From: a virus
Lineage: Duplodnaviria > Heunggongvirae > Uroviricota > Caudoviricetes
Strand: one strand, 5' to 3'
DNA: 10,363 nt
Virus record (IMG/VR): IMGVR_UViG_2654587726_000019
Coordinates: 1-10,363 of that record
The notes under the pieces were generated by a model that saw nothing but the letters and a program-made list of their open reading frames with translations, did no database searches and was not told the DNA's origin. Shown here one piece after another: positions 1 to 10,363 of this stretch; the first letter of the stretch is position 1, and each line of letters begins with the position of its first letter. The position numbers were made by a program, and so were the translations under genes.

Positions 1-49
1 CCCCCGCCGTTAGCAGGCTGGCGGCGGCAATCATTACCAGGAGCGTGTG

Positions 50-268
50 ATGGGCGGCTGGATTGAACATATCACCACCGAGGGCGAGCGCTGGGATAAT
101 CTGGCGTTCCTCTATTACGGCGATCCAATGGGCTATGAGCGCATCATTGTCGCTAACCCCCATATTGCGATCACGCCGACACTGGCCTCCGGGCTGCGGT
201 TGCGTATTCCGGTGATCGGCCCGATGCAGGTGCATAACGTTGATGAGGTGCCGCCGTGGCTCAGGTAA
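50..268 (+). CDS. Phage tail protein X-like (LysM-like small tail protein)
   Basis: ATG at 50 preceded by AGGAG (39-43); an in-frame GTG at 47 is the alternative start. The translation has a LysM-like pattern (W-D-x-LA-x-x-YYG ... ANP ... G-x-x-L-x-IP) as in P2 gpX-family proteins, and the size (~72 aa) fits. The stop overlaps the next gene. Confidence 0.6.
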   Translation: MGGWIEHITTEGERWDNLAFLYYGDPMGYERIIVANPHIAITPTLASGLRLRIPVIGPMQVHNVDEVPPWLR

Positions 269-1356
269 ATGCCGTTATCACCCCCGTTTTCACCCTGTTT
301 TACGGGCAGAAAGATATCACTCACGATATTGCTCCTTTTGTCCTGAGCGTGACGTATACCGACAGTCTCAAGAGCGAATCGGATGAAATCGACGTGCAGG
401 TGGAAGACACCGCCGGGCGCTGGCGCGAGGCGTGGTATCCGGGCAAAGGCGATATGCTGATGCTGAAGTTGGGCTATCAGGGCGAAGCGTTGCTGGACTG
501 TGGAGCGTTCTCCATCGATGAGATTGAGCTGGGCGCACCGCCGGATACGGTATCCATTCGCGGCGTGGCGACGTCGGTCAACAGCGCTCTGCGTACCGCC
601 TCCAGCGAGGGCTACGAAGAGACGACGCTGGATGCGATTGCCAGCCGTATCGCGCAGAAGCATGGTCTGAAGCTGGTCGGTCAGATAGAGCCGATTACCA
701 TTGACCGGGTGACGCAATACGCGGAAACCGACGTCGGTTTTCTGAAGCGGCTGGCGGGTGAGTATGGTTATGCGCTGAAAGTCACCACTGGCGAGCTGGT
801 GTTTTCCCATCTGGCTACACTGCGAAGTAACGCGCCGGTGACGACGCTGACGCCGCAGGATGTAGCGCGCTGGTCGCTGCGCGATACCATCAACCGCATC
901 TATAAGGATGCAAAGGTGGCGCATCAGAAGAGTAAAGAGAAGACGCTGGTGACGTACCACGCCGACGGCCCGCCGACCACGGAGACGCGTGGTAAATCGA
1001 CCAGCGCCGATACGCTCAAGGTCAATGCACGGGCGGCGGATCAGGGGACGGCGCAGGTGAAAGCCGAGGCGGCGCTGGATGACCATAACGAGTATCAGCA
1101 GACCGGTTCGCTCTCGATGATGGGCAACACGCAGCTTATCGCCGGGAACAAAATCACTCTCGACGGGTTCGGCGTGCTCTCCGGGGAGTGGCTGATCACC
1201 AGCGCCCGTCACTCGTTTGACCGTTCATCGGGCTACAGCACCGAAATTGAGGTCGGACGTGGCCCGAAAACGGCCTCCGGCGGCGGGAAGAAGAAAAAAC
1301 CGGATACGCTGACCGTCTATCACCCGGACGGCCCACCCACCCAGGAGAAAAAATGA
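256..1356 (+). CDS. Baseplate hub / phage late control gene D-like tail protein
   Basis: 366-aa ORF with a GTG start overlapping the end of the X-like gene and a GAGG upstream. The N-terminal region has a G-x-QGE-x-L-x-D-x-G-x-F-x-x-DEIE-x-x-GPPD pattern recalled from the P2 gpD / Mu gp44 family. Position immediately before the V/W/J/I genes fits. Confidence 0.65.
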   Translation: MAQVNAVITPVFTLFYGQKDITHDIAPFVLSVTYTDSLKSESDEIDVQVEDTAGRWREAWYPGKGDMLMLKLGYQGEALLDCGAFSIDEIELGAPPDTVSIRGVATSVNSALRTASSEGYEETTLDAIASRIAQKHGLKLVGQIEPITIDRVTQYAETDVGFLKRLAGEYGYALKVTTGELVFSHLATLRSNAPVTTLTPQDVARWSLRDTINRIYKDAKVAHQKSKEKTLVTYHADGPPTTETRGKSTSADTLKVNARAADQGTAQVKAEAALDDHNEYQQTGSLSMMGNTQLIAGNKITLDGFGVLSGEWLITSARHSFDRSSGYSTEIEVGRGPKTASGGGKKKKPDTLTVYHPDGPPTQEKK

Positions 1357-1844
1357 AAGGCGTCACCCGACAGACCGGGATTATCAGCGATATCGACGAG
1401 GTGAAGGTGTGCGTGCGCGTCACCCTGCCGGAATGCGACGATCTGCGCACCAACTGGCTCCCCATCCTGCAACGCAATACGCAGGACAATAAGGACTACT
1501 GGCTGCCGGATATCGGCGAGCAGGTGGAGGTGCTGCTGGATGATAACGGCGAGGATGGCGTGGTGCTGGGGGCGGTCTATTCGTCGGTGGATACGCCACC
1601 GGTGACGGACAAAGACAAGCGCTATGTGCGGTTCTCCGATAAGGCCGCGATTGAGTACGACCGCAAACAGCACCAGTTGACCATTAATGGCGGCATTGAA
1701 AAAATCGTGATTGAGGTGAAAACCAGCGTCAGCATCACCGCGCCGCAGGTGGTCATCACTGGTAATGTCCGCGTCACCGGCAATATCAGTGCGTCAGGCT
1801 CTATCATCGACGCTGGCGGCAATACCAACCATCACTCTCATTAA
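1353..1844 (+). CDS. Baseplate assembly protein V-like (central spike)
   Basis: 163-aa ORF; ATG overlaps the upstream TGA (ATGA coupling) with AGGAG 8 nt upstream. Size, position before a gpW-like gene and a Gly/Val-rich C-terminal beta-type segment fit the gpV / Mu gp45 family. Confidence 0.65.
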   Translation: MKGVTRQTGIISDIDEVKVCVRVTLPECDDLRTNWLPILQRNTQDNKDYWLPDIGEQVEVLLDDNGEDGVVLGAVYSSVDTPPVTDKDKRYVRFSDKAAIEYDRKQHQLTINGGIEKIVIEVKTSVSITAPQVVITGNVRVTGNISASGSIIDAGGNTNHHSH

Positions 1845-1872
1845 AGCGGTTTAATATCGCCACTTTAGCAAC

Positions 1873-1890
1873 GGGGGCGACAATGCCCCC
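1873..1890 (+). promoter_or_regulatory. Small hairpin GGGGGC-gacaat-GCCCCC in the V-W intergenic region, ending at the W start codon
   Basis: 6-bp perfect inverted repeat read from the sequence. It overlaps the expected ribosome-binding region of the gpW-like gene, which has no strong SD. Confidence 0.3.
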
Positions 1891-2250
1891 ATGAGCACAC
1901 AATCCCATCCTTTAAATCTGCACTGGCAACCGGCCCTGAAACGCGACGGCGAGTACGTCTGTGGGCTGGAGGATATCAGCCAGGCCGTTCACATCATTCT
2001 GCGCACGCCGCGCGGTAGCGATCCCCATCGCCCCTTTTTCGGTAGCGACCTGTGGCGCTATATCGACTGGCCTGCTGAACGGGCGATTCCCCATGTGGTG
2101 CGTGAGTCGGTGGAGGCTATCCGCCACTGGGAGCCGCGCTGCAAATTTCTCAAAGTGGTGCCGGAACTGGACGGCGAACATCTCACGCTGCGCATCCAGT
2201 GGCGCGCCGCCGATGGCGTTATTAATGAAACGGAGGTGGTATGGCGTTAG
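1891..2250 (+). CDS. Baseplate wedge protein, GPW/gp25 family
   Basis: 119-aa ORF containing LEDISQ-x-x-x-I-ILRTP-x-GS ... FGS-x-L ... WEPR, matching the conserved pattern of P2 gpW / T4 gp25-like proteins. Its stop overlaps the next gene's start. Confidence 0.7.
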   Translation: MSTQSHPLNLHWQPALKRDGEYVCGLEDISQAVHIILRTPRGSDPHRPFFGSDLWRYIDWPAERAIPHVVRESVEAIRHWEPRCKFLKVVPELDGEHLTLRIQWRAADGVINETEVVWR

Positions 2251-3356
2251 CTGAACCCGATTTTATCGACCGCGACCCGGCGCAAATCACCAGTGAGATG
2301 ATTGCGCAGTATGAAGCGGTGAGCGGTAAAACGCTCTATCCGGCGCAGGCGGAGCGGCTGCTGATTGATGTTATTGCCTATCGTGAAAATCTGCTGCGCA
2401 TCGGCATTCAGGAGGCGGCAAAGCAGAATCTGGTGGCGTTTTCCCGTGCGCCAATGCTCGATTACCTCGGCGAACTGGTGGGCGTGAAGCGCCTGCCTGC
2501 GCAGGCGGCACAGACCACGTTGCGGTTTTCCGTTGCCAGCGCGCAAAAGCGCAATGTGCTGATCCCGGAGGGCACCCGCGCCAGCGCGGCCAACAGCGTG
2601 ATGTTTGCCACCGATGACGATGTGCTGCTGCCAGCCGGAAGTCTGAGCGTCGATGTCACGGCCACATGTACCACCGCTGGCGTTGTGGGTAATGGCTGGC
2701 AACCGGCGCAGATTAGCGCACTGGTGGACAGCGTGGCAGGTGTCGATTTGCAGGTGACGAACATTACCGCGTCCGGCGGCGGCTGCGCCGATGAAAGCGA
2801 CGACGCCCTGCGCGAGCGTATCCGGCTGGCTCCTGAAAGTTTCAGTAACGCGGGGAGTTATGGCGCATACCGCTTTCATGCGCTGTCAGTCAGCCAGGCG
2901 ATTATCGACGTGGCCATCCTCGGCCCGGATGAGGGGCTGGATGAAGGTTGCGTGGAGATTTACCCGCTGACGCAGGACGGTCTGCCGGGCGATGAGTTGC
3001 TGGCACAGGTGGTGCAGGATGTCAGTAAAGAGAAGAAACGCCCGTTGACCGATAAGGTAAGCGCGAAGAAACCACTGCGCGTGGCATATCAGATTAACGC
3101 GCAACTCACGCTATTCACTAAAGCCGATCAGGACTCGACGCTGCTGGCCGCGCGTAAGGCCATCGCCGACTGGACGGCAGAGCGCGAGCGCCATCTGGGG
3201 CGGGATATCGTCCCCAATCAAATCATCAAAGTGTTGCAGGTGGCGGGTGTCTATGACGTGGCGCTGGAAACACCTGCCAAACGAGTGCTCGCGGCACATG
3301 AGTGGGCGCAGTGTACCTCGATTGATGTGACCATCGCCGGGGTGAGCGATGGATAA
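2241..3356 (+). CDS. Baseplate J-like protein
   Basis: 371-aa ORF; ATG overlaps the end of the W-like gene with GGAGG upstream. Size and position (after W, before I-like and fiber) match the gpJ / Mu gp47 family. Assigned by family-level recall, not by alignment. Confidence 0.65.
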   Translation: MALAEPDFIDRDPAQITSEMIAQYEAVSGKTLYPAQAERLLIDVIAYRENLLRIGIQEAAKQNLVAFSRAPMLDYLGELVGVKRLPAQAAQTTLRFSVASAQKRNVLIPEGTRASAANSVMFATDDDVLLPAGSLSVDVTATCTTAGVVGNGWQPAQISALVDSVAGVDLQVTNITASGGGCADESDDALRERIRLAPESFSNAGSYGAYRFHALSVSQAIIDVAILGPDEGLDEGCVEIYPLTQDGLPGDELLAQVVQDVSKEKKRPLTDKVSAKKPLRVAYQINAQLTLFTKADQDSTLLAARKAIADWTAERERHLGRDIVPNQIIKVLQVAGVYDVALETPAKRVLAAHEWAQCTSIDVTIAGVSDG

Positions 3357-4068
3357 GTTACCGCTTCAACCGCCGCTCGCCGGGGATGAACGCTTTACCC
3401 GGCTGGCAAATCTTGCCGCTGAACGCTTCGCACAACTCGATCTGACCGCGCTTCTGATTTACCTGGTGGATCTGGTGGATGCCACGGCGCTGCCGTCGCT
3501 GGCAGAACAGTTCCACGTTCAGGGGCTGGAAGGCTGGCTGTTTGCCCGCGATGAGCGACAAAAGCGCGATCTGATCAAGCAGGCCATTGAGCTGCACCGC
3601 TATCGCGGTACGCCGTGGGCAGTGCGTCAGGTACTGAAGATTCTGGCGTTGGACGGCGATATCAGCGAGTGGTTTGAGTATGGCGGTAAGCCGTACTTTT
3701 TCCGCATGGATGTCACGCTTGAGACGCGCGGGCTGACTGAGGATGAATTTAACGCGCTGATTGTGCTGATCCATGAGTACAAGAACGTCCGCTCAAAGCT
3801 GGAGATGCTGACTATCTGGCTGATTAACCAGAGCCAGATCCCGGTTATCGCCAGTGCTGTTCAGGGCGGCGAGATTGCTACCGTTCTGCCGTGGATTGCG
3901 GAGAGCGTGAGTCAGTCGTCTGCGGTTTATCTGGCGACGGAGTGTTTGAGTGCAGAGGTGGTAACGGTGTTGCCTCCGCTGCATGGCAATGTTGAGCAGA
4001 CCAGCGTTATGAGTGTTGGAGCGGGCTGCTGGAGTATTGAGTTTGTCACTGTTTACCCGGAGGAGTAA
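3349..4068 (+). CDS. Phage tail protein I-like (baseplate wedge, fiber attachment)
   Basis: 239-aa ORF whose start overlaps the J-like stop (ATGGATAA). It sits directly upstream of the tail fiber gene, as gpI / Mu gp48 does. Acidic, Leu-rich N-terminus is typical of the family. Confidence 0.6.
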   Translation: MDKLPLQPPLAGDERFTRLANLAAERFAQLDLTALLIYLVDLVDATALPSLAEQFHVQGLEGWLFARDERQKRDLIKQAIELHRYRGTPWAVRQVLKILALDGDISEWFEYGGKPYFFRMDVTLETRGLTEDEFNALIVLIHEYKNVRSKLEMLTIWLINQSQIPVIASAVQGGEIATVLPWIAESVSQSSAVYLATECLSAEVVTVLPPLHGNVEQTSVMSVGAGCWSIEFVTVYPEE

Positions 4069-5768
4069 TGGCGAGTGAATTTTTTACCATTTTAACCGCC
4101 GCTGGCCGCGCGAAGATTGCTGCGGCGCTGGCGGAACAAAAGCAGATAGTGCTGCAAACAATGGTCGTTGGCGACGGCGGCGGGCAGTATGCCGAACCGA
4201 AAGAGAGCCAGACAAAGGTGGTGCGTGAAGTCTGGCGCGGGTCACTGAATACGCTGAAAATCGCCCCGGAAAACCCGGCGTGGGTGATTGCCGAGGCGGT
4301 ACTGCCGGAAGCGAAAGGCGGCTGGTATATCCGCGAGGTGGGATCGCTGGATATGGACGGCGTGCTGATTGCCATCGGCAAGTTCCCGGAAACCTATAAG
4401 CCGAAGCTGCCTGCCGGGGCCAGTAAGCAAATTGTGATCCGCGCTGTGATGGAAGTGACGAACGCGGCGGCGGTAACGCTGATGGTTGATCCGTCGCTGG
4501 TGATGGCAACGGTAGATTATGTGGACTCCAGTATTGAAGAGCACGAAAGATCACATAATCACCCGGACGCAACGCTGACTCAGAAAGGCTTTACGCAGCT
4601 TAACAGCTCCACCAATAGCACGCTGGAAACGCAGGCAGCAACGCCGAAGGCGGTGAAGGCGGCGATGGATAAGGCGAATGAGGCACTGGAAAAAGCTGGG
4701 GCTGATAAAGCGCATAAACATCCGTGGGCCGATATTACCGGGGTGCCGGATGGGACAACGGCGCAGAAAGGGGTTGTGAAGCTTAATAGCTCAACGAACA
4801 GTACCAGTACGACGGAGGCTGCGACACCGAGTGCGGTTAAGGCGGCATATGACCTGGCGAATGGTAAGGCGGCGGGGAGCCATAAACATGCCTGGGGCGA
4901 TATTACCGGGGTACCGGATGGCACTACGGCGCAAAAAGGGATCGTAAAGCTCAACAGCGCGACGAACAGCACCAGTACTACCGAAGCGGCCACGCCCGGC
5001 GCAGTGAAGGCGGCGTATGACCTGGCGAACGGGAAAGCGGCTTCCAGCCATACTCACGCATGGAGTCAGATTACCGGCGTACCGGATGCAACTACAGCGC
5101 AAAAAGGGGTTGTGAAGCTTAATAGCGCGACGAACAGTACCAGTACGACTGAAGCCGCAACGCCGAGCGCGGTTAAGGCGGCGTATGACAAGGCGAATAC
5201 AGCAATCTCCAGTTTTGCTCTTTTCACGTCGAATGGGACGTTTACGGTGCCAGTCGGGGTAACGAAAGTGATGGTGGAAATGATTGGAGGTGGAGGTGGT
5301 GGCGGCGGCGGTGGTGTGGGTGGTGGTGAGCGAATTGGTTATCCGACAGCAGGTAAACCATCACTTTTTGTTCAAGGGATTGTTGCTGTGAACTCTGGAC
5401 AAAATGTAACCGTCACAGTCGGCGGAGGCGGTGTTGGGGGATCATCAAAAGTAGATACTGGTGGTGGTTCGATGACCGGGAGTAATGGGTACGCCGGAGG
5501 AAACTCAATTTTCTTAACGCTCACTTCTGTTGGTGGTAGCGGCGGCGGCGGTGCATTGCCAGATTCTGGTCCTGGCAACGCATTAAATGAGCCAGGTTCT
5601 GATTCAACGCATGGCTATGGCGGGGGGACTAAGTATAACTCGCAGAAAAATGCCGTAGGTTATGGTTCGAGTGGTGCGGCTGGTACCTCTAAAGGCGTCA
5701 GAACTGTTGAAGGGGACTCTACAGCAGGTGGCAATGGTGCTTCAGGTTTTGTCAGAATATGGTGGTAA
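4068..5768 (+). CDS. Tail fiber protein (P2 gpH / Mu S-like N-terminal domain, tandem fiber repeats, Gly-rich C-terminal tip)
   Basis: 566-aa ORF with GGAGG upstream; ATG overlaps the preceding TAA by 1 nt. N-terminal ~160 aa match the conserved gpH N-terminal pattern (VGDGGG, EVWR, SYKP-like, VMAT-x-DYVD-x-x-I-x-EHE-x-S). This is followed by four tandem ~56-aa repeats and a glycine-rich C-terminus. Confidence 0.85.
   Translation: MASEFFTILTAAGRAKIAAALAEQKQIVLQTMVVGDGGGQYAEPKESQTKVVREVWRGSLNTLKIAPENPAWVIAEAVLPEAKGGWYIREVGSLDMDGVLIAIGKFPETYKPKLPAGASKQIVIRAVMEVTNAAAVTLMVDPSLVMATVDYVDSSIEEHERSHNHPDATLTQKGFTQLNSSTNSTLETQAATPKAVKAAMDKANEALEKAGADKAHKHPWADITGVPDGTTAQKGVVKLNSSTNSTSTTEAATPSAVKAAYDLANGKAAGSHKHAWGDITGVPDGTTAQKGIVKLNSATNSTSTTEAATPGAVKAAYDLANGKAASSHTHAWSQITGVPDATTAQKGVVKLNSATNSTSTTEAATPSAVKAAYDKANTAISSFALFTSNGTFTVPVGVTKVMVEMIGGGGGGGGGGVGGGERIGYPTAGKPSLFVQGIVAVNSGQNVTVTVGGGGVGGSSKVDTGGGSMTGSNGYAGGNSIFLTLTSVGGSGGGGALPDSGPGNALNEPGSDSTHGYGGGTKYNSQKNAVGYGSSGAAGTSKGVRTVEGDSTAGGNGASGFVRIWW
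4554..5205 (+). repeat. Four tandem in-frame repeats (periods 159, 168, 168 bp) encoding phage tail-fiber repeat units
   Basis: Repeat units start at 4554, 4713, 4881 and 5049. Each encodes H-x-H-x-W-x-x-ITGVPD-x-TTAQKG-x-VKLNS-x-TNST ... EAATP-x-AVKAAYD. The last three copies are nearly identical at the protein level. Confidence 0.85.
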
Positions 5769-5771
5769 CAC

Positions 5772-6374
5772 ATGAAATATGCGTATTTTGAACCCTCATC
5801 AATGAAGGTTTTAGACTGGCTGGATACCGAACAATTATCCTTTGTTTTGCCTGACAGTGTTGTTTCGGTAACTGATGAGCAATGGTGTTATCGTGATCGT
5901 GAATGCTGGGTCAATATTTCAACCACAGAAATCATCACAACACCTCCACCCGGTGATTTTTATCGGCTTGATGGTGATAAGTGGGTGTATGACGCAACCA
6001 GCTATACTGCTGCGCTAGACGGTGCTAAGTCACTAGTTGTTAAGGCAATCAAGGCGCTACGCGATGAAGTCACTGCCGATTATATCATTATCGGCGACTA
6101 TCACTTTCACAGCGATGCCAGCAGTCGTATCCAGCAAATGTCACTCACCAGGATGGGGCAAACGAAGCAAATCCCCAAAGGCTTAATGTGGCAGACCAAA
6201 AACCTCGGACTTCTCGAGCTAACCAATGAAATCGCGGCGCAGTTTGAGTCCATTACAATGGATCACGATATGCGCCTCTTTGCCAATGCCCAGCGACATA
6301 TTGCCGCCGTTGAGGCGCTGGAAGATATCCTGGCAGTTCAGGAGTATGACTACTCTACGGGGTGGCAACCATGA
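5772..6374 (+). CDS. Putative tail-fiber-associated protein (assembly chaperone candidate; family not recognised)
   Basis: 200-aa ORF starting 4 nt after the fiber stop. It shares the fiber tip's low GC content. Its position is that of a Tfa/gpG-type chaperone, but the sequence does not match the classical Tfa pattern as I recall it. Confidence 0.4.
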   Translation: MKYAYFEPSSMKVLDWLDTEQLSFVLPDSVVSVTDEQWCYRDRECWVNISTTEIITTPPPGDFYRLDGDKWVYDATSYTAALDGAKSLVVKAIKALRDEVTADYIIIGDYHFHSDASSRIQQMSLTRMGQTKQIPKGLMWQTKNLGLLELTNEIAAQFESITMDHDMRLFANAQRHIAAVEALEDILAVQEYDYSTGWQP

Positions 6375-6823
6375 GGCCGGTGTATCTGGCGTTCTATAAA
6401 GGGCGAGCCGATCATCATGGGTTCGCACGTCTTTCCGACTGGCTGACGCGGCTGGTGACGCGGGGTGAGTATTCTCACTGCGAGCTGGCTGTTGACCAGG
6501 GTAACGGCGAGTTTCTTTGTTATTCGTCGTCGGTGCGTGACAAGGGGGTGCGCTGTAAGCAAATGCCGCTGCCACTCGATAAATGGGATCTTATCGCGCT
6601 AAATGCGCTACCAACCAGTGTGGAGCAGTTCTTCCGTCGAAACGACGCCATGAAATATGACTGGCTGGGGGCTGTGGGATTCGTTGTTTTTAATCGTGGA
6701 CGGGAGAACAAATATTTCTGTAGCGAGTTTTGCGCAGATTTTCTTGGACTGGTCGATAGCTGGCGTTATTCACCCAATATGCTCCACGCGCTGGCCAGCA
6801 GTATTCAGACTATGAAGTTATAA
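6371..6823 (+). CDS. Hypothetical Cys/His-rich protein (moron); function unknown
   Basis: 150-aa ORF; ATG at 6371 overlaps the upstream TGA (ATGA), with an alternative GTG at 6362. GC-rich, with a coding-like codon pattern. Contains GEYSHCEL and YFCSEFCADF motifs. No confident family assignment. Confidence 0.5.
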   Translation: MRPVYLAFYKGRADHHGFARLSDWLTRLVTRGEYSHCELAVDQGNGEFLCYSSSVRDKGVRCKQMPLPLDKWDLIALNALPTSVEQFFRRNDAMKYDWLGAVGFVVFNRGRENKYFCSEFCADFLGLVDSWRYSPNMLHALASSIQTMKL

Positions 6824-6836
6824 GGGAAACAGCGAC

Positions 6837-6862
6837 CAGAGTCAGGCGGTCACCTGACTCTG
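6837..6862 (+). promoter_or_regulatory. Perfect 10-bp-stem hairpin (CAGAGTCAGG-cggtca-CCTGACTCTG) just downstream of the moron ORF
   Basis: The inverted repeat is read directly from the sequence. There is no U-tract after it, so it is not a canonical intrinsic terminator; it could be an RNA stability or attenuation element. Confidence 0.4.
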
Positions 6863-6907
6863 ACCAGCTAACCCGCAGGAAGTGTCTGCGAGCCGCCCAG
6901 GGCTGCC

Positions 6908-6923
6908 ACTGATGGCCATCAGT
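6908..6923. promoter_or_regulatory. Perfect 16-bp palindrome ACTGATGGCCATCAGT upstream of the methylase gene (candidate operator)
   Basis: Exact dyad symmetry read from the sequence, ~47 bp upstream of the methylase ATG. Any regulatory role is inferred. Confidence 0.35.
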
Positions 6924-6969
6924 CCAATAAGCCTAACAGTTTTTCACATACTGAAAAAGGTTTGCAGAA

Positions 6970-7743
6970 ATGAAAACATTACCCATTATTCCGTGGCCCG
7001 GCGGTAAGCGTCGTCTGGCCAAAAAGTTATTACCGTTATTTCCTGAGCACCAGTGTTATGTAGAGCCATTCTGCGGCGGTGCAGCCTTGTATTTCATGAA
7101 GGAGCCGGTTGAAGCTGAAGTCCTGAACGATATCAACGGCGAACTGGTGAATCTGTACCGTGTGGTTAAAAATCATCTTGAAGAGTTTGTGCGCCAGTTC
7201 AAGTGGGCGTTGAGCAGCAGGCAGATTTTTGAATGGTCGAAAATGACCATCCCGGAGACGCTAACTGATATTCAGCGTGCAGCGCGGTTTTATTATCTCC
7301 AGAAGCAATCATTCGGAGGGAAAGTGGAATCACAGACGTATGGAACGGCGACCACTTCTGCACCACGGCTTAATCTGCTAAGGCTGGAAGAGGAGTTGAG
7401 CGCCGCCCATTTGCGGCTATCACGCACGTTTGTAGAACATTTACCGTGGCGTACCTGCATTGAGAAGTATGATCGCCCGCACACACTGTTCTATTGCGAT
7501 CCCCCGTATTGGGGAACGGAGGGCTACGGTGTTGAATTTGGACTGGAGCAGTACACCCAACTTGCAGAGTTGGCCAGAACGATAAAAGGCAGGATGTTGA
7601 TCAGTGTGAACGATATCCCGGAGATGCGTGAAACCTTTGCGGACTTGTCGATTGATACGGTAGATATTCGCTATACGTTGAGCGGTGGGCCTAATGCTAA
7701 TCGCTCGAAAGTCAGCCGTGAGCTGGTCATTCGTAACTGGTAA
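6970..7743 (+). CDS. Dam-family (D12 class) N6-adenine DNA methyltransferase, orphan
   Basis: 257-aa ORF with the N-terminal pattern WPGGK ... EPFCGGAA (AdoMet-binding FxGxG-type motif), DINGELVNLY, and the catalytic DPPY motif (FYCDPPYW). This is the architecture of E. coli Dam / T4 Dam-like methylases. No endonuclease gene is recognisable beside it. Confidence 0.8.
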   Translation: MKTLPIIPWPGGKRRLAKKLLPLFPEHQCYVEPFCGGAALYFMKEPVEAEVLNDINGELVNLYRVVKNHLEEFVRQFKWALSSRQIFEWSKMTIPETLTDIQRAARFYYLQKQSFGGKVESQTYGTATTSAPRLNLLRLEEELSAAHLRLSRTFVEHLPWRTCIEKYDRPHTLFYCDPPYWGTEGYGVEFGLEQYTQLAELARTIKGRMLISVNDIPEMRETFADLSIDTVDIRYTLSGGPNANRSKVSRELVIRNW

Positions 7744-7850
7744 AGTGGAATTCTTTTGCAATAGGTGAAAAAAGTCGCAGCGCGATTTATCTCGCAGATT
7801 CAGGCGAATTTATCGCGCGCGGCTTTAGCACCGGAGCGACCGGTTATTAC

Positions 7851-8780
7851 GTGCTAATTCTGTCGCTGGTATCCACCATTCCGTACAGTAAAAAGCTACC
7901 AACATCGAAATTAATGATGCCCCTGGGATTTGCCACCAACCACCCGCTTCTTCCTATCAATCTCGCGCTTCTCTTTGGCGTTACGGCGACCGTACTCGAA
8001 ACCGCGGGGTTTCATCAGGAGATTTCGATGGGGCGCTTTGCGCTGGTGAATCTCATCATGTCAGCGGCTTTCCTCGCATGGAGTCTTATTGCCTACCGTT
8101 TTCTTCCGGATCATCCCATTGCGGATGCTTCCGAGGATGCGCTGGCGGCACGCGAGGAAACGTTTAACGCCCTTCCTGCCTGGAAAGAATATTGCACTAT
8201 TGCCGCATTCGCTGTCAGCGTTATCGGCATGATGCTAATGAACATTCTGGGAAATATCGCCTTCGTTATTCCGGGTCTTGCGGGTGCGTTTGTTCTGATG
8301 ATCGATGTACTGGACTTCAAAGAAGTTCGCGATCATATGGGGGCTCCGGTCATTTTAATGATGGCGGGGGTGATCGGTGTAGCTGATGCACTGGCGGGCA
8401 CCGGCTTTACGGCGATGGTTGGCGATGCCGTTGCAGGTGTGCTCGGTTCTGGCGTCTCACCGTTTGTATTTATTGTCGCCTTTGCTTTGCTTACCAGTAC
8501 CTGCGCCACCTTCACGGGTTCGAATATGGGGTCAGTATATATTTTTGCCCCCATCGCCATTGCCGCCTGTACTAGCCTTGGGCTTAACCCGACCGCTGCC
8601 GCGATTGCGGTGGTGATTTCTGGCTGGAATGGCGGCTATATGCCTATTGACGGAATGCCAGCCATGATCCTCGGAATGGGGAAATACAAACTTCCCGAAT
8701 TCTGGGTGTTCTCTGTACCAATGTATCTCATCCGCATTCTGGCGCTTTGTGCAGGCGCTGTTTTTATCTTCCCAATGTAA
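7851..8780 (+). CDS. Integral membrane permease (ion-transporter-superfamily-like), possibly a 5'-truncated gene
   Basis: Strongly hydrophobic ORF with multiple predicted membrane-spanning segments and Gly/Ala-rich re-entrant-loop-like motifs (TFTGSNMG, NGGYMPIDG). The track start is a GTG at 7851 with a poor RBS. An in-frame ATG at 8028 has a strong AGGAG 6 nt upstream. The frame stays open upstream to 7737 with no good start codon. Confidence 0.5.
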   Translation: MLILSLVSTIPYSKKLPTSKLMMPLGFATNHPLLPINLALLFGVTATVLETAGFHQEISMGRFALVNLIMSAAFLAWSLIAYRFLPDHPIADASEDALAAREETFNALPAWKEYCTIAAFAVSVIGMMLMNILGNIAFVIPGLAGAFVLMIDVLDFKEVRDHMGAPVILMMAGVIGVADALAGTGFTAMVGDAVAGVLGSGVSPFVFIVAFALLTSTCATFTGSNMGSVYIFAPIAIAACTSLGLNPTAAAIAVVISGWNGGYMPIDGMPAMILGMGKYKLPEFWVFSVPMYLIRILALCAGAVFIFPM

Positions 8781-8787
8781 TCTCAGA

Positions 8788-8825
8788 CAAAAAAAGCGGC
8801 AGAGAAGATCCCTGCCGCTTTTTAT
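8788..8825. terminator. Bidirectional rho-independent terminator
   Basis: GC-rich stem GCGGCAG / CTGCCGC (8796-8802 and 8812-8818) with a 9-nt loop, flanked by an A-run (8789-8795) and a T-run (8819-8825). It lies between the convergent permease and nagE genes. Confidence 0.65.
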
Positions 8826-8830
8826 TGTTG

Positions 8831-8854
8831 GATGCGACGCTGCCGCGTCGCATC
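8831..8854. repeat. Palindromic hairpin GATGCGACGC-tgcc-GCGTCGCATC (REP-like element or secondary nagE terminator stem)
   Basis: Perfect 10-bp inverted repeat immediately 3' of the nagE stop. It resembles enterobacterial REP palindromes in having a GATGCG core, but no adjacent U-tract. Confidence 0.4.
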
Positions 8855-8868
8855 AGACATAAAGCAGA

Positions 8869-10363
8869 TTACTTTTTGATTTCATACAGCGGTGTTTGAC
8901 CCGCCACAACATGGCCCTGAGCTTTAATGATAAGGCCGCTGAAATCGTCGATATTGCTGCAAACCACCGGGCTAATCATCGAACGGGCGTTAGCGTTCAG
9001 GTAATCCAGATCCATTTCCAGAATCGGTTGCCCTGCGCTTACCTGCGCGCCCTCTTCTACCAGACGTTTAAAGCCTTTACCTTCCAGCGCTACGGTGTCG
9101 ATACCCATATGGACGACGATCTCCTCGCCTTTTTCGGTTTCCAGACAGAATGCGTGGTTGGTGTTGAAGATTTTCACGATTGTTCCTGCGGCTGGTGATA
9201 CGACGATTTTATCTGTCGGTTTCACCGCCACACCGTCACCCACCGCTTTGCTGGCGAATGCTTCGTCAGGAACCTGATCCAGTGCCACAACATCCCCGGT
9301 AATCGGGGATACCAGCTCCGCGATAGATACCGCGTTTGGTACAGCCTGCGGTTTTGCTACAGGAGCGGCAGTTGCCGGAGTTGCTTCAGCTGACGCAGCG
9401 GCTACCGGACCACCGGCAACGACTTTCTTCATCGCATCGCCGATGGATTCTGCTTTCGCGCCAACAATCACCTGAATAGTCTGTTTGTTCAGTTTCACTA
9501 CCCCAGAAGCACCCAGACGTTTACACATCGCATCGTTGACGCGAGCTGAGTCAACCACGGTAAGGCGCAGACGAGTAATACAGGCATCAATGGCTTTCAG
9601 GTTGTCAGTACCGCCAACCGCAGCAATATAGTTGGTTGCCAGTTGATTGAGACCTTCTTCAGTATTGCTGTTAGCCTCTTCAGTAACGATCTCGTCTTCT
9701 TTATCTTCACGACCCGGCGTTTTCAGGTTGAACATGCGGATAACCAAACTGAACACCACGAAGTAGATAGCGAAGAAGACAACCCCCATCACCAGCAGCA
9801 TCCAGACGTTCTGGCTGGCGGCCGGCAGGTTATACATCAACGCGTAGTCGATAGCCCCCGCAGAGAAAGAGAAGCCGGCATGGATACCCAGCAACGTTGC
9901 CACAAACAGGCTGATACCGGTCAGCAGTGCGTGCAGGAGGTACAGCAGCGGTGCAAGGAACATGAACAGGAATTCCAGCGGCTCAGTCACACCGGTCAGG
10001 AACGCAGTAACAGCAACAGAAAGCAGCATCCCGCCAACCATCGGACGACGCTCTTTCGGTGCTGCGAAGTACATCGCCAGCGCCGCACCTGGCAGACCGA
10101 ACATCATAATCGGGAAGAAGCCGGACATGAACATCCCCGCGGTGCCGTCACCGGCATAGAAGCGGTTGATATCACCGTGGAAAACCGTTCCCGCCGCGTT
10201 GGTGAATTCACCAATCTGGAACCAGGCGATGGTGTTCAGCACCTGATGCAGACCGGTTGGGATCAGCAGACGGTTGATGAAACCAAAGATACCGGAACCC
10301 AGCGCGCCCGCAGAAACGATCCACTCGCCGCCTGCATGGATAGCGTGCTGTACCGGCGGCCAG
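8869..10363 (-). CDS. nagE: PTS N-acetylglucosamine-specific EIICBA component (3' portion; the 5' end lies beyond the window)
   Basis: The minus-strand frame is open to the window edge. The translation shows the end of a IIC membrane domain, a IIB domain with the phospho-cysteine motif (DACITRLR), an Ala/Pro-rich linker, and a C-terminal Crr-like IIA-Glc domain (VHMGIDTVALEGKGFKRLVEEG), ending YEIKK. A fused CBA order with a Crr-like IIA domain is characteristic of NagE. Confidence 0.85.
   Translation of the reverse strand, partial: WPPVQHAIHAGGEWIVSAGALGSGIFGFINRLLIPTGLHQVLNTIAWFQIGEFTNAAGTVFHGDINRFYAGDGTAGMFMSGFFPIMMFGLPGAALAMYFAAPKERRPMVGGMLLSVAVTAFLTGVTEPLEFLFMFLAPLLYLLHALLTGISLFVATLLGIHAGFSFSAGAIDYALMYNLPAASQNVWMLLVMGVVFFAIYFVVFSLVIRMFNLKTPGREDKEDEIVTEEANSNTEEGLNQLATNYIAAVGGTDNLKAIDACITRLRLTVVDSARVNDAMCKRLGASGVVKLNKQTIQVIVGAKAESIGDAMKKVVAGGPVAAASAEATPATAAPVAKPQAVPNAVSIAELVSPITGDVVALDQVPDEAFASKAVGDGVAVKPTDKIVVSPAAGTIVKIFNTNHAFCLETEKGEEIVVHMGIDTVALEGKGFKRLVEEGAQVSAGQPILEMDLDYLNANARSMISPVVCSNIDDFSGLIIKAQGHVVAGQTPLYEIKK

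Follow-up and report, generated by a model that had tools for sequence, protein, structure and literature searches.

The NlpC/P60 superfamily of papain-like cysteine enzymes, including its circularly permuted branch, is well known, and NlpC/P60 domains are common in phages as lysins. The canonical enzymes are peptidoglycan peptidases, whereas the permuted members of known activity, i.e. LRAT/PLAAT, Tox-Act1, TseH, LnsA and RID, are lipid acyl-hydrolases or acyltransferases. YaeF and YiiX of Escherichia coli and BcPPNE of B. cereus (PDB 2if6, 3kw0; PF05708 / MEROPS C92) also belong to the permuted branch, and YiiX was crystallised with a fatty acid in its hydrophobic S1 pocket. Here, we analysed a stretch of 10,363 nucleotides (IMG/VR record IMGVR_UViG_2654587726_000019, positions 1 to 10,363; hereafter the window), which according to its gene content and host junction represents the right end of a transposable E. 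coli prophage of the Mu type. An open reading frame (ORF) on its plus strand (6371..6823; ATG start, TAA stop), recognised by ORF call, homologues, profile matches and a structural model, encodes a single-domain protein of 150 amino acids. Judged from its predicted fold and catalytic residues, this protein is very likely a circularly permuted NlpC/P60 (papain-like) cysteine enzyme, and its closest branch is YaeF/YiiX.

The phage protein differs in many respects from these relatives. It is only about 17-18% identical to YaeF, YiiX and BcPPNE and is shorter (150 compared to 180-274 amino acids), and the N-terminal extension of YiiX and YaeF is missing. The gene is found in phage late operons, unlike those of YaeF and YiiX, which are themselves of unknown function. 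Around the active site, the phage family has a near-invariant Glu two residues behind the His (E38), where YiiX has Gly and YaeF has Ala, and a Ser-rich strand (S52/S53) replaces Glu64 of YiiX and BcPPNE. D57 corresponds to Asp68 of BcPPNE, one of the residues holding the bound lysine in that crystal structure.

More distant from the phage enzyme than YiiX are Tox-Act1 and TseH, type VI secretion system effectors with a permuted NlpC/P60 phospholipase domain; these are secreted, periplasm-acting toxins with immunity proteins, whereas the neighbourhood of the phage gene shows no conserved partner gene of the immunity type. Compared to the LRAT/H-rev107 (PLAAT) proteins and the picornavirus 2A H-NC proteins, the phage enzyme lacks the NCEHF box, in place of which it has FCSEF, and a C-terminal membrane anchor. 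A preliminary description of the window had seen a loose resemblance to this box; the permuted fold agrees with that idea, the box itself does not. The structural similarity to LRAT/PLAAT is also much weaker than to YiiX, and the important second Cys of LRAT at nucleophile +7 has no conserved equivalent (C121 is found at +4 and is variable). As a single case, the distant homologue P0204 (187 amino acids; L172, a 773-bp contig) carries a hydrophobic and basic C-terminal extension (...GMIYFIKYIIKYIFKNMFKK), which could serve as a membrane anchor reminiscent of that of PLAAT. Regarding S. aureus LnsA (lipoprotein N-acylation) and Vibrio MARTX RID (lysine N-fatty acylation), no sequence-level relationship was detected; LnsA needs its partner LnsB, and there is no indication that the phage enzyme uses a protein as acceptor. 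Finally, poxvirus G6R is also a permuted NlpC/P60 protein of viral origin, which has the same four catalytic residues and, likewise, an unknown substrate (PMC3142127), but it stems from a eukaryotic virus, has no link to a virion attachment module and did not rank among the 50 best matches of the viral fold library.

A predicted permuted fold with a modified active site

The number of homologues confirms at the sequence level that the ORF is a real gene and not a chance ORF. In a 90%-clustered database 213 homologues were found, mostly unnamed or 'hypothetical' and in a few cases named 'enoyl-CoA hydratase', and a profile built from 30 of them retrieved 3249 representatives at 50% identity (E<=1e-3), 1361 of which at E<=1e-10. 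Among the 150 matches listed, nearly all are single-domain proteins of about 100-190 amino acids, the shortest probably being fragments, and two are longer (232 and 247 amino acids). An identical copy of the gene exists on the IMG/VR contig L083. An in-frame GTG at 6362, 9 bases upstream of the ATG, represents an alternative start that would yield 153 amino acids (MATM...).

Scans with Pfam and NCBIfam models gave no usable match to the protein, for Pfam not even at E<=1, and only two of the 30 homologues hit PF05708 (Peptidase_C92, YaeF/YiiX) below the threshold (best E 0.035). However, the family profile matched 3kw0 (BcPPNE, annotated as 'cysteine peptidase') with E=4.1e-5. This match consists of two blocks, one surrounding the His and one the Cys, in which H36 aligns with His49 and C117 with Cys154 after subtraction of the 19-residue expression tag. 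With an alignment of 109 members compared to single sequences, hhalign reported 95.9% probability and E=5.4e-9 over 117 columns for YaeF, with C117 placed on the FCSEF motif, and E=4.6e-5 for YiiX, with H36, Y96 and C117 in the columns of His49, Tyr115 and Cys128. These residues were described as the catalytic His, the oxyanion Tyr and the nucleophilic Cys of permuted NlpC/P60 enzymes by Xu et al. (PMC3142127). Since the PF05708 score stays below threshold while the profile-profile similarity is significant, we treat the family as a sister of PF05708 and not as a member of that Pfam entry.

The AlphaFold2 model, calculated from a 30-sequence alignment, is confident (predicted local distance difference test, pLDDT, 90.1; predicted template modelling score, pTM, 0.86) and shows five strands followed by helices, i.e. 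an N-terminal five-stranded sheet subdomain and a helical subdomain as in the papain-like core. H36 starts the strand 36-42, and the helix 117-124 begins with C117. The His thus precedes the Cys, which caps a helix at its N-terminal end near the C-terminus of the protein, as is typical of circular permutation. Foldseek likewise matched 3kw0, and all fold matches were papain-like. In a viral structure library the best matches were uncharacterised Caudovirales proteins, and rank 10 was a 'Permuted papain-like amidase YaeF/YiiX C92'. Hence, profile matches, model and fold matches bear out the permuted papain-like enzyme with His before Cys that the preliminary description had proposed.

The assigned fold is also at odds with the present database name. 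The only PHROGs match is phrog_1128, 'enoyl-CoA hydratase/carnithine racemase-like', and the enoyl-CoA hydratase label also occurs in several GenBank and RefSeq records, among them SuMu gp51, Pm86 ORF70 and RP12 ORF176, and on several bacterial records. A protein of the enoyl-CoA hydratase/carnitine racemase type, as GenBank and PHROG 1128 have it, would belong to the crotonases, but neither Pfam nor NCBIfam gave a crotonase match, the model is papain-like, and no crotonase was among the fold matches. Moreover, 150 amino acids are far too short for that fold. We therefore give this function next to no credence and regard it as refuted by fold and profile results; the name appears to be a propagated annotation error.

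Both motifs quoted in the preliminary description are present, GEYSHCEL at residues 32-39 and YFCSEFCADF at residues 115-124, and the FCSE signature around C117 is common to YaeF, YiiX and BcPPNE. Conservation was counted among 109 diverse representatives, whose identity to the window protein is about 27-52%. The H36-C37-E38 codons lie at 6476..6484 (plus strand); H36 (6476-6478), the putative catalytic His, is conserved in all 109 and E38 in 107. The codons for C117-S118-E119 are found at 6719..6727 (plus strand), with the probable nucleophile C117 (6719-6721) conserved in 108, S118 in 103 and E119 in 107 representatives. The Y96-D97 codons occupy 6656..6661 (plus strand); Y96, in the alignment column of YiiX Tyr115 and thus a candidate for the oxyanion Tyr signature of NlpC/P60 enzymes, is kept in 108 and D97 in 104 of the sequences, and W72 is present in all. 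In contrast, the second Cys of each motif is poorly conserved, C37 (70 C, 31 V) as well as C121 four residues behind C117 (54 C, 32 V). The profile comparison and structure prediction that had been suggested led to a papain-like fold with a conserved His, and of the two Cys residues near the C-terminus the first one is conserved.

The same data speak against another reading, namely that the protein is a small PD-(D/E)xK nuclease working together with the neighbouring Dam-like methylase. This idea relied on a loose Asp ... E-N-K reading in RGRENKYF (residues 109-116). However, E111, N112 and K113 belong to a loop (residues 108-113) that varies freely without any residue preference, and the weakest block of the model (residues 101-110, mean pLDDT 68) holds the start of this loop. 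Furthermore, no nuclease was found among the fold matches, and the methylase gene is no constant neighbour, as discussed below. Such a nuclease is refuted by conservation and fold, and its probability is minute.

A third polar residue on the neighbouring strand, which would complete the triad, was not found. At the place of the triad Glu64 of YiiX and BcPPNE, both alignments put S52 or S53 (S/A/T) from a Ser-rich strand (S52-S53-S54-V55-R56-D57, codons 6524..6541, plus strand), where 95 of the 109 sequences have Ser at position 52, 92 Ser and 17 Ala at position 53, and 102 Ser at position 54; position 57 is Asp in 97 and Glu in 7. Among P2-like relatives, R56 is changed to Met in the subgroup of the lysis-cassette homologues described below. 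The missing acid could indicate a structural or adaptor protein without catalytic activity, in which only the fold was retained, but LRAT works without the third residue and PPPDE1 also lacks it (PMC3142127), so that the absence is compatible with membership in the permuted clade. The near-absolute conservation of His, Cys, Tyr and CSE across the 109 representatives is, moreover, the pattern of purifying selection on an active site. We consider a dead protein very improbable and infer from the conserved residues that the enzyme should be catalytically active; E38, specific to this family, may orient His36 in place of the triad acid.

Association with tail-fibre chaperone genes

The enzyme gene is almost always found right after a tail-fibre chaperone gene. 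In the window, this neighbour is a DUF4376 tail-fibre assembly/chaperone-like gene (5772..6374, plus strand; PF14301, phrog_2837/1807), which is a conserved neighbour of the enzyme gene in related loci as well. Its stop codon overlaps the start of the enzyme gene in an ATGA (6371..6374, plus strand), and translation of the two genes is probably coupled via this overlap. To evaluate the context more widely, 160 related loci from genomes and viral contigs were compared, 159 of which contain the complete gene. An upstream ORF on the same strand, mostly of about 200-260 amino acids, was present in 153 of the 159, and it usually ends within about 20 bp of the enzyme-gene start, i.e. the near-zero spacing of the window recurs in most of these loci. 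The 121 upstream ORFs examined for domains included 65 with DUF4376, 17 with Caudo_TAP, an unrelated chaperone domain of the lambda type, and 2 fibres; 92 upstream ORFs matched phrog_2837, the family of the chaperone-like gene in the window, and many matched tail-fibre-assembly PHROGs. The downstream gene (n=110 loci) is variable, with a D12 methylase in 24, a P2-type tail sheath gene in 9, and Mom, C5 methylase, RlaP, GNAT, CHAP and others in further loci.

Several annotated phages illustrate this arrangement and its variations. In Haemophilus phage SuMu, the order is fibre, chaperone, enzyme, and then com and a methylase, while in the Moraxella Mcat phages the enzyme gene is situated among annotated tail genes and in Pasteurella phage Pm86 upstream of the tape-measure gene. 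The copy of a Pseudomonas siphovirus stands ahead of an annotated lysis gene and follows ORFs that are unannotated in the record. A 146-kb T4-like contig encodes an 898-aa protein, a 128-aa protein and then, with a 4-nt overlap, the enzyme, whereas the gene stands alone in Ralstonia jumbo phages. In a P2-like sublineage (L179:3731-4450, L181:3992-4450 and L187:509-1228, with flanks), the homologue is found between gpL/gpX and the genes for a Phage_holin_3_1 holin and a muramidase endolysin, i.e. at the head of the lysis cassette. Two related chromosomal, non-phage loci (L173:4359-5543, L177:3279-4441) have the enzyme gene directly downstream of a CDP-alcohol phosphatidyltransferase gene on the same strand, which may be taken as a weak hint of a lipid-related function.

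The gene arrangement makes it likely that the enzyme is produced late. The overlap with a late gene, the absence of any sigma-70-like promoter from 5600-7900 (consensus scan only) and the tight spacing throughout the family together suggest that it is made with the fibres or the lysis proteins, and they tend to argue against a classical moron (the term used in the preliminary description), which would have a promoter and a terminator of its own and stand apart from the late genes around it. A hairpin, described below, is found past the stop codon of the enzyme gene. Nevertheless, a lysogenic-conversion or superinfection-exclusion function deserves attention, in which the protein would be expressed in the lysogen and modify a receptor-bearing envelope component (lipopolysaccharide, LPS, or lipooligosaccharide, LOS, or a lipoprotein) to block related phages. 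The gene would then travel with the fibre genes because it is matched to their receptor specificity. Classical exclusion genes, cor and llp for example, show linkage to genes for tail fibres or receptor binding, and the relevant PHROGs category is 'moron, auxiliary metabolic gene and host takeover'. P2-like relatives carry the gene between the chaperone and the sheath genes (the 9 sheath cases among the 110 downstream genes), which in P2 is the position of the Z/fun accessory hotspot. However, besides the features of a late cistron mentioned above, no PADLOC match was obtained, and the GC content does not clearly deviate from that of the neighbours. The protein also has no export signal, though it could act on lipid precursors at the cytoplasmic face. 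In sum, we regard an exclusion function as quite unlikely.

Proposed reaction and substrate

Taken as a whole, the explanation that we consider probable is a small cytoplasmic permuted NlpC/P60 acyl enzyme, which is made late and probably uses a fatty-acyl substrate. In this enzyme, His36 would activate Cys117 at the N-terminus of its helix, and Cys117 would attack an acyl carbonyl to form a thioester acyl-enzyme, the oxyanion being stabilised by Tyr96. The acyl group could then be passed to water, as in a hydrolase, or to an acceptor, as in an acyltransferase. As product of the last cistron of the late tail operon, the protein would be produced along with the fibres in the late phase of the lytic cycle. 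Regarding its location, the aligned region starts at residue 22-23, compared to residue 35 in YiiX and 80 in YaeF, and the fold starts at residue 4. Hence, the N-terminus is too short to include a signal peptide or lipobox, and a cytoplasmic location is presumed for the protein unless it is carried in the virion.

As substrate we tentatively propose, by analogy, a fatty-acyl group bound as ester or amide in a lipid of the envelope or in a lipidated molecule, and not a peptide bond, because of the fatty acid in YiiX, the lipid-active relatives and the phospholipid-synthesis neighbour in one lineage. We favour this type of substrate over others, although its probability is somewhat less than even.

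A number of points weigh against this explanation. PF05708 does not recognise the window protein, and the Ser/Ala at the triad-acid position (Glu64 of YiiX and BcPPNE) means that the catalytic geometry may differ. The only ground for the cytoplasmic location is the missing N-terminal extension, and late expression is read from gene arrangement. The substrate is argued purely by analogy, and the linkage to the phosphatidyltransferase gene was seen in one lineage only (two loci, proteins 65% identical; metagenome scan). Furthermore, the ligand in the BcPPNE crystal is lysine and not a lipid, and since its contact residue Asp68 is kept as D57, an amino-acid or peptide-like leaving group would be possible.

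A protein of the same fold could instead act as a true peptidase or amidase that cleaves a peptide or isopeptide bond, in accordance with the activity of canonical NlpC/P60 enzymes. Its target might be the fibre or chaperone, the peptidoglycan stem peptide or its precursor, or a modification to be removed from a host protein. BcPPNE binds L-lysine via Ser48, His49 and Asp68, the equivalents of which (S35, H36 and D57) are conserved here, and the permuted enzymes were concluded to be 'cysteine peptidases, or related enzymes' by Xu et al. (PMC3142127). The PPPDE/DeSI relatives are isopeptidases, and the tight and phylogenetically broad coupling to fibre and chaperone genes would fit a fibre-maturation protease. 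However, all activities demonstrated for permuted members in the literature that we examined concern fatty-acyl groups, and without a signal peptide the protein would miss the peptidoglycan before lysis. In addition, some homologues are located away from fibre genes, in the lysis cassette, in jumbo phages or on chromosomes. Moreover, fibres of the Mu/P2 type are not known to require processing. A peptidase or amidase function is therefore considered rather unlikely, and the late acyl enzyme outlined above is preferred.

The late acyl enzyme could be part of a more general phenomenon. The family adjoins chaperone genes in several phage types (Mu-like, P2-like, T4-like and sipho-phages), and holin/endolysin genes in another lineage. 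It might represent an unrecognised class of phage late enzymes, i.e. permuted NlpC/P60 fatty-acyl hydrolases or transferases that are made in the cytoplasm and serve virion modules directed at the host envelope. Such enzymes might remodel phospholipid, lipid A/LOS or lipoprotein when the infection ends, which could aid release or destroy receptors on debris, or they might acylate or process the fibre or its chaperone. However, this generalisation is speculative and we give it a low probability.

The prophage end and the methylase gene

Upstream of the chaperone-like gene, the window contains baseplate genes (256-4068) and a tail-fibre gene (4068..5768, plus strand), which encodes a tail-collar domain at the N-terminus, four Phage_fiber_2 repeats and, at the C-terminus, a domain rich in Gly. 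The latter corresponds to PF21722 and contains a long poly-Gly run GGGGGGGGGVGGG (window 4068-5768). Downstream, 14 nt past the stop codon of the enzyme gene, a perfect 10-bp inverted repeat CAGAGTCAGG N6 CCTGACTCTG with a 6-nt loop is found at 6837..6862. It possibly marks the end of the tail operon; its plus strand has no T-run, and the scan flagged it as terminator-like on the minus strand only.

The repeat is part of an intergenic region (6824..6969, plus strand), which also includes a 16-bp palindrome ACTGATGGCCATCAGT (6908-6923) and is conserved in the prophage of E. coli A35, a close relative (compare L167:3766-3853). This region probably holds a separate promoter region for the next transcription unit. 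In the window, that unit is a gene for a Dam-type (D12 class) N6-adenine DNA methyltransferase (6970..7743, plus strand), a variable neighbour outside the conserved module of the enzyme, whereas in the A35 prophage com-mom and then host DNA come after the enzyme gene. Positions 6780-7000 of the window and the region upstream of com-mom share 88% mean column identity, and the similarity extends up to the next start codon. It seems that cassettes were exchanged behind a regulatory region of the mom type that both prophages have in common. Because com-mom stands behind the same intergenic region in A35, the Dam gene of the window would be a swapped cassette and not the partner of the enzyme. A functional pairing of the two is hence rejected; it is also contradicted by the presence of a D12 methylase in only 24 of the 110 loci.

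The prophage ends at 7827 (...TTTATCGCGCGCGGCTTTA), and E. coli host DNA starts at 7828. The terminal prophage bases resemble the right end of Mu, and two similar motifs, TTTATC(T/G)CGC, are situated just inside the prophage end (window 7744-7851). The host part, from 7828 onward, matches E. coli chromosomes with 99.8% identity; it enters an SLC13-family permease gene 328 nt from its start, and nagE is the next gene. The junction inside the permease gene means that the Mu-like element disrupted this transporter gene, of which the ORF 7851-8780 is a truncated remnant (compare L166:2173-3453). A megablast search of the region against the phage collection gave no match, and a related stretch was found in only 2 of 5426 complete E. 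coli genomes.

Meaning for phage biology

Nothing in the findings on the enzyme overturns current understanding. Nothing on this family was found in the literature searched, and the genome and proteome paper of SuMu does not mention gp51. Nevertheless, the family stands apart as a minimal, permuted and, as inferred above, cytoplasmic enzyme with a modified triad, which is tied to chaperone genes across unrelated phage types. It is a large family with thousands of 50%-identity clusters, almost entirely phage-borne, with a preserved active site and no Pfam or NCBIfam model, and the correction of a misleading database name is useful by itself. The interest would be modest if the protein turned out to be another accessory hydrolase whose phenotype is minor. 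The biological question is which role a lipid-type cysteine enzyme plays beside fibre or lysis genes, and this question is testable. If the proposed function is true, the phage enzyme would be a tractable model for the poorly understood bacterial YaeF/YiiX branch. Moreover, an action on envelope lipids or the fibre, if true, would mean a new enzymatic step in phage adsorption, release or exclusion in Gram-negative hosts, among them pathogens like Haemophilus, Neisseria, Moraxella, Pasteurella, Salmonella and E. coli.

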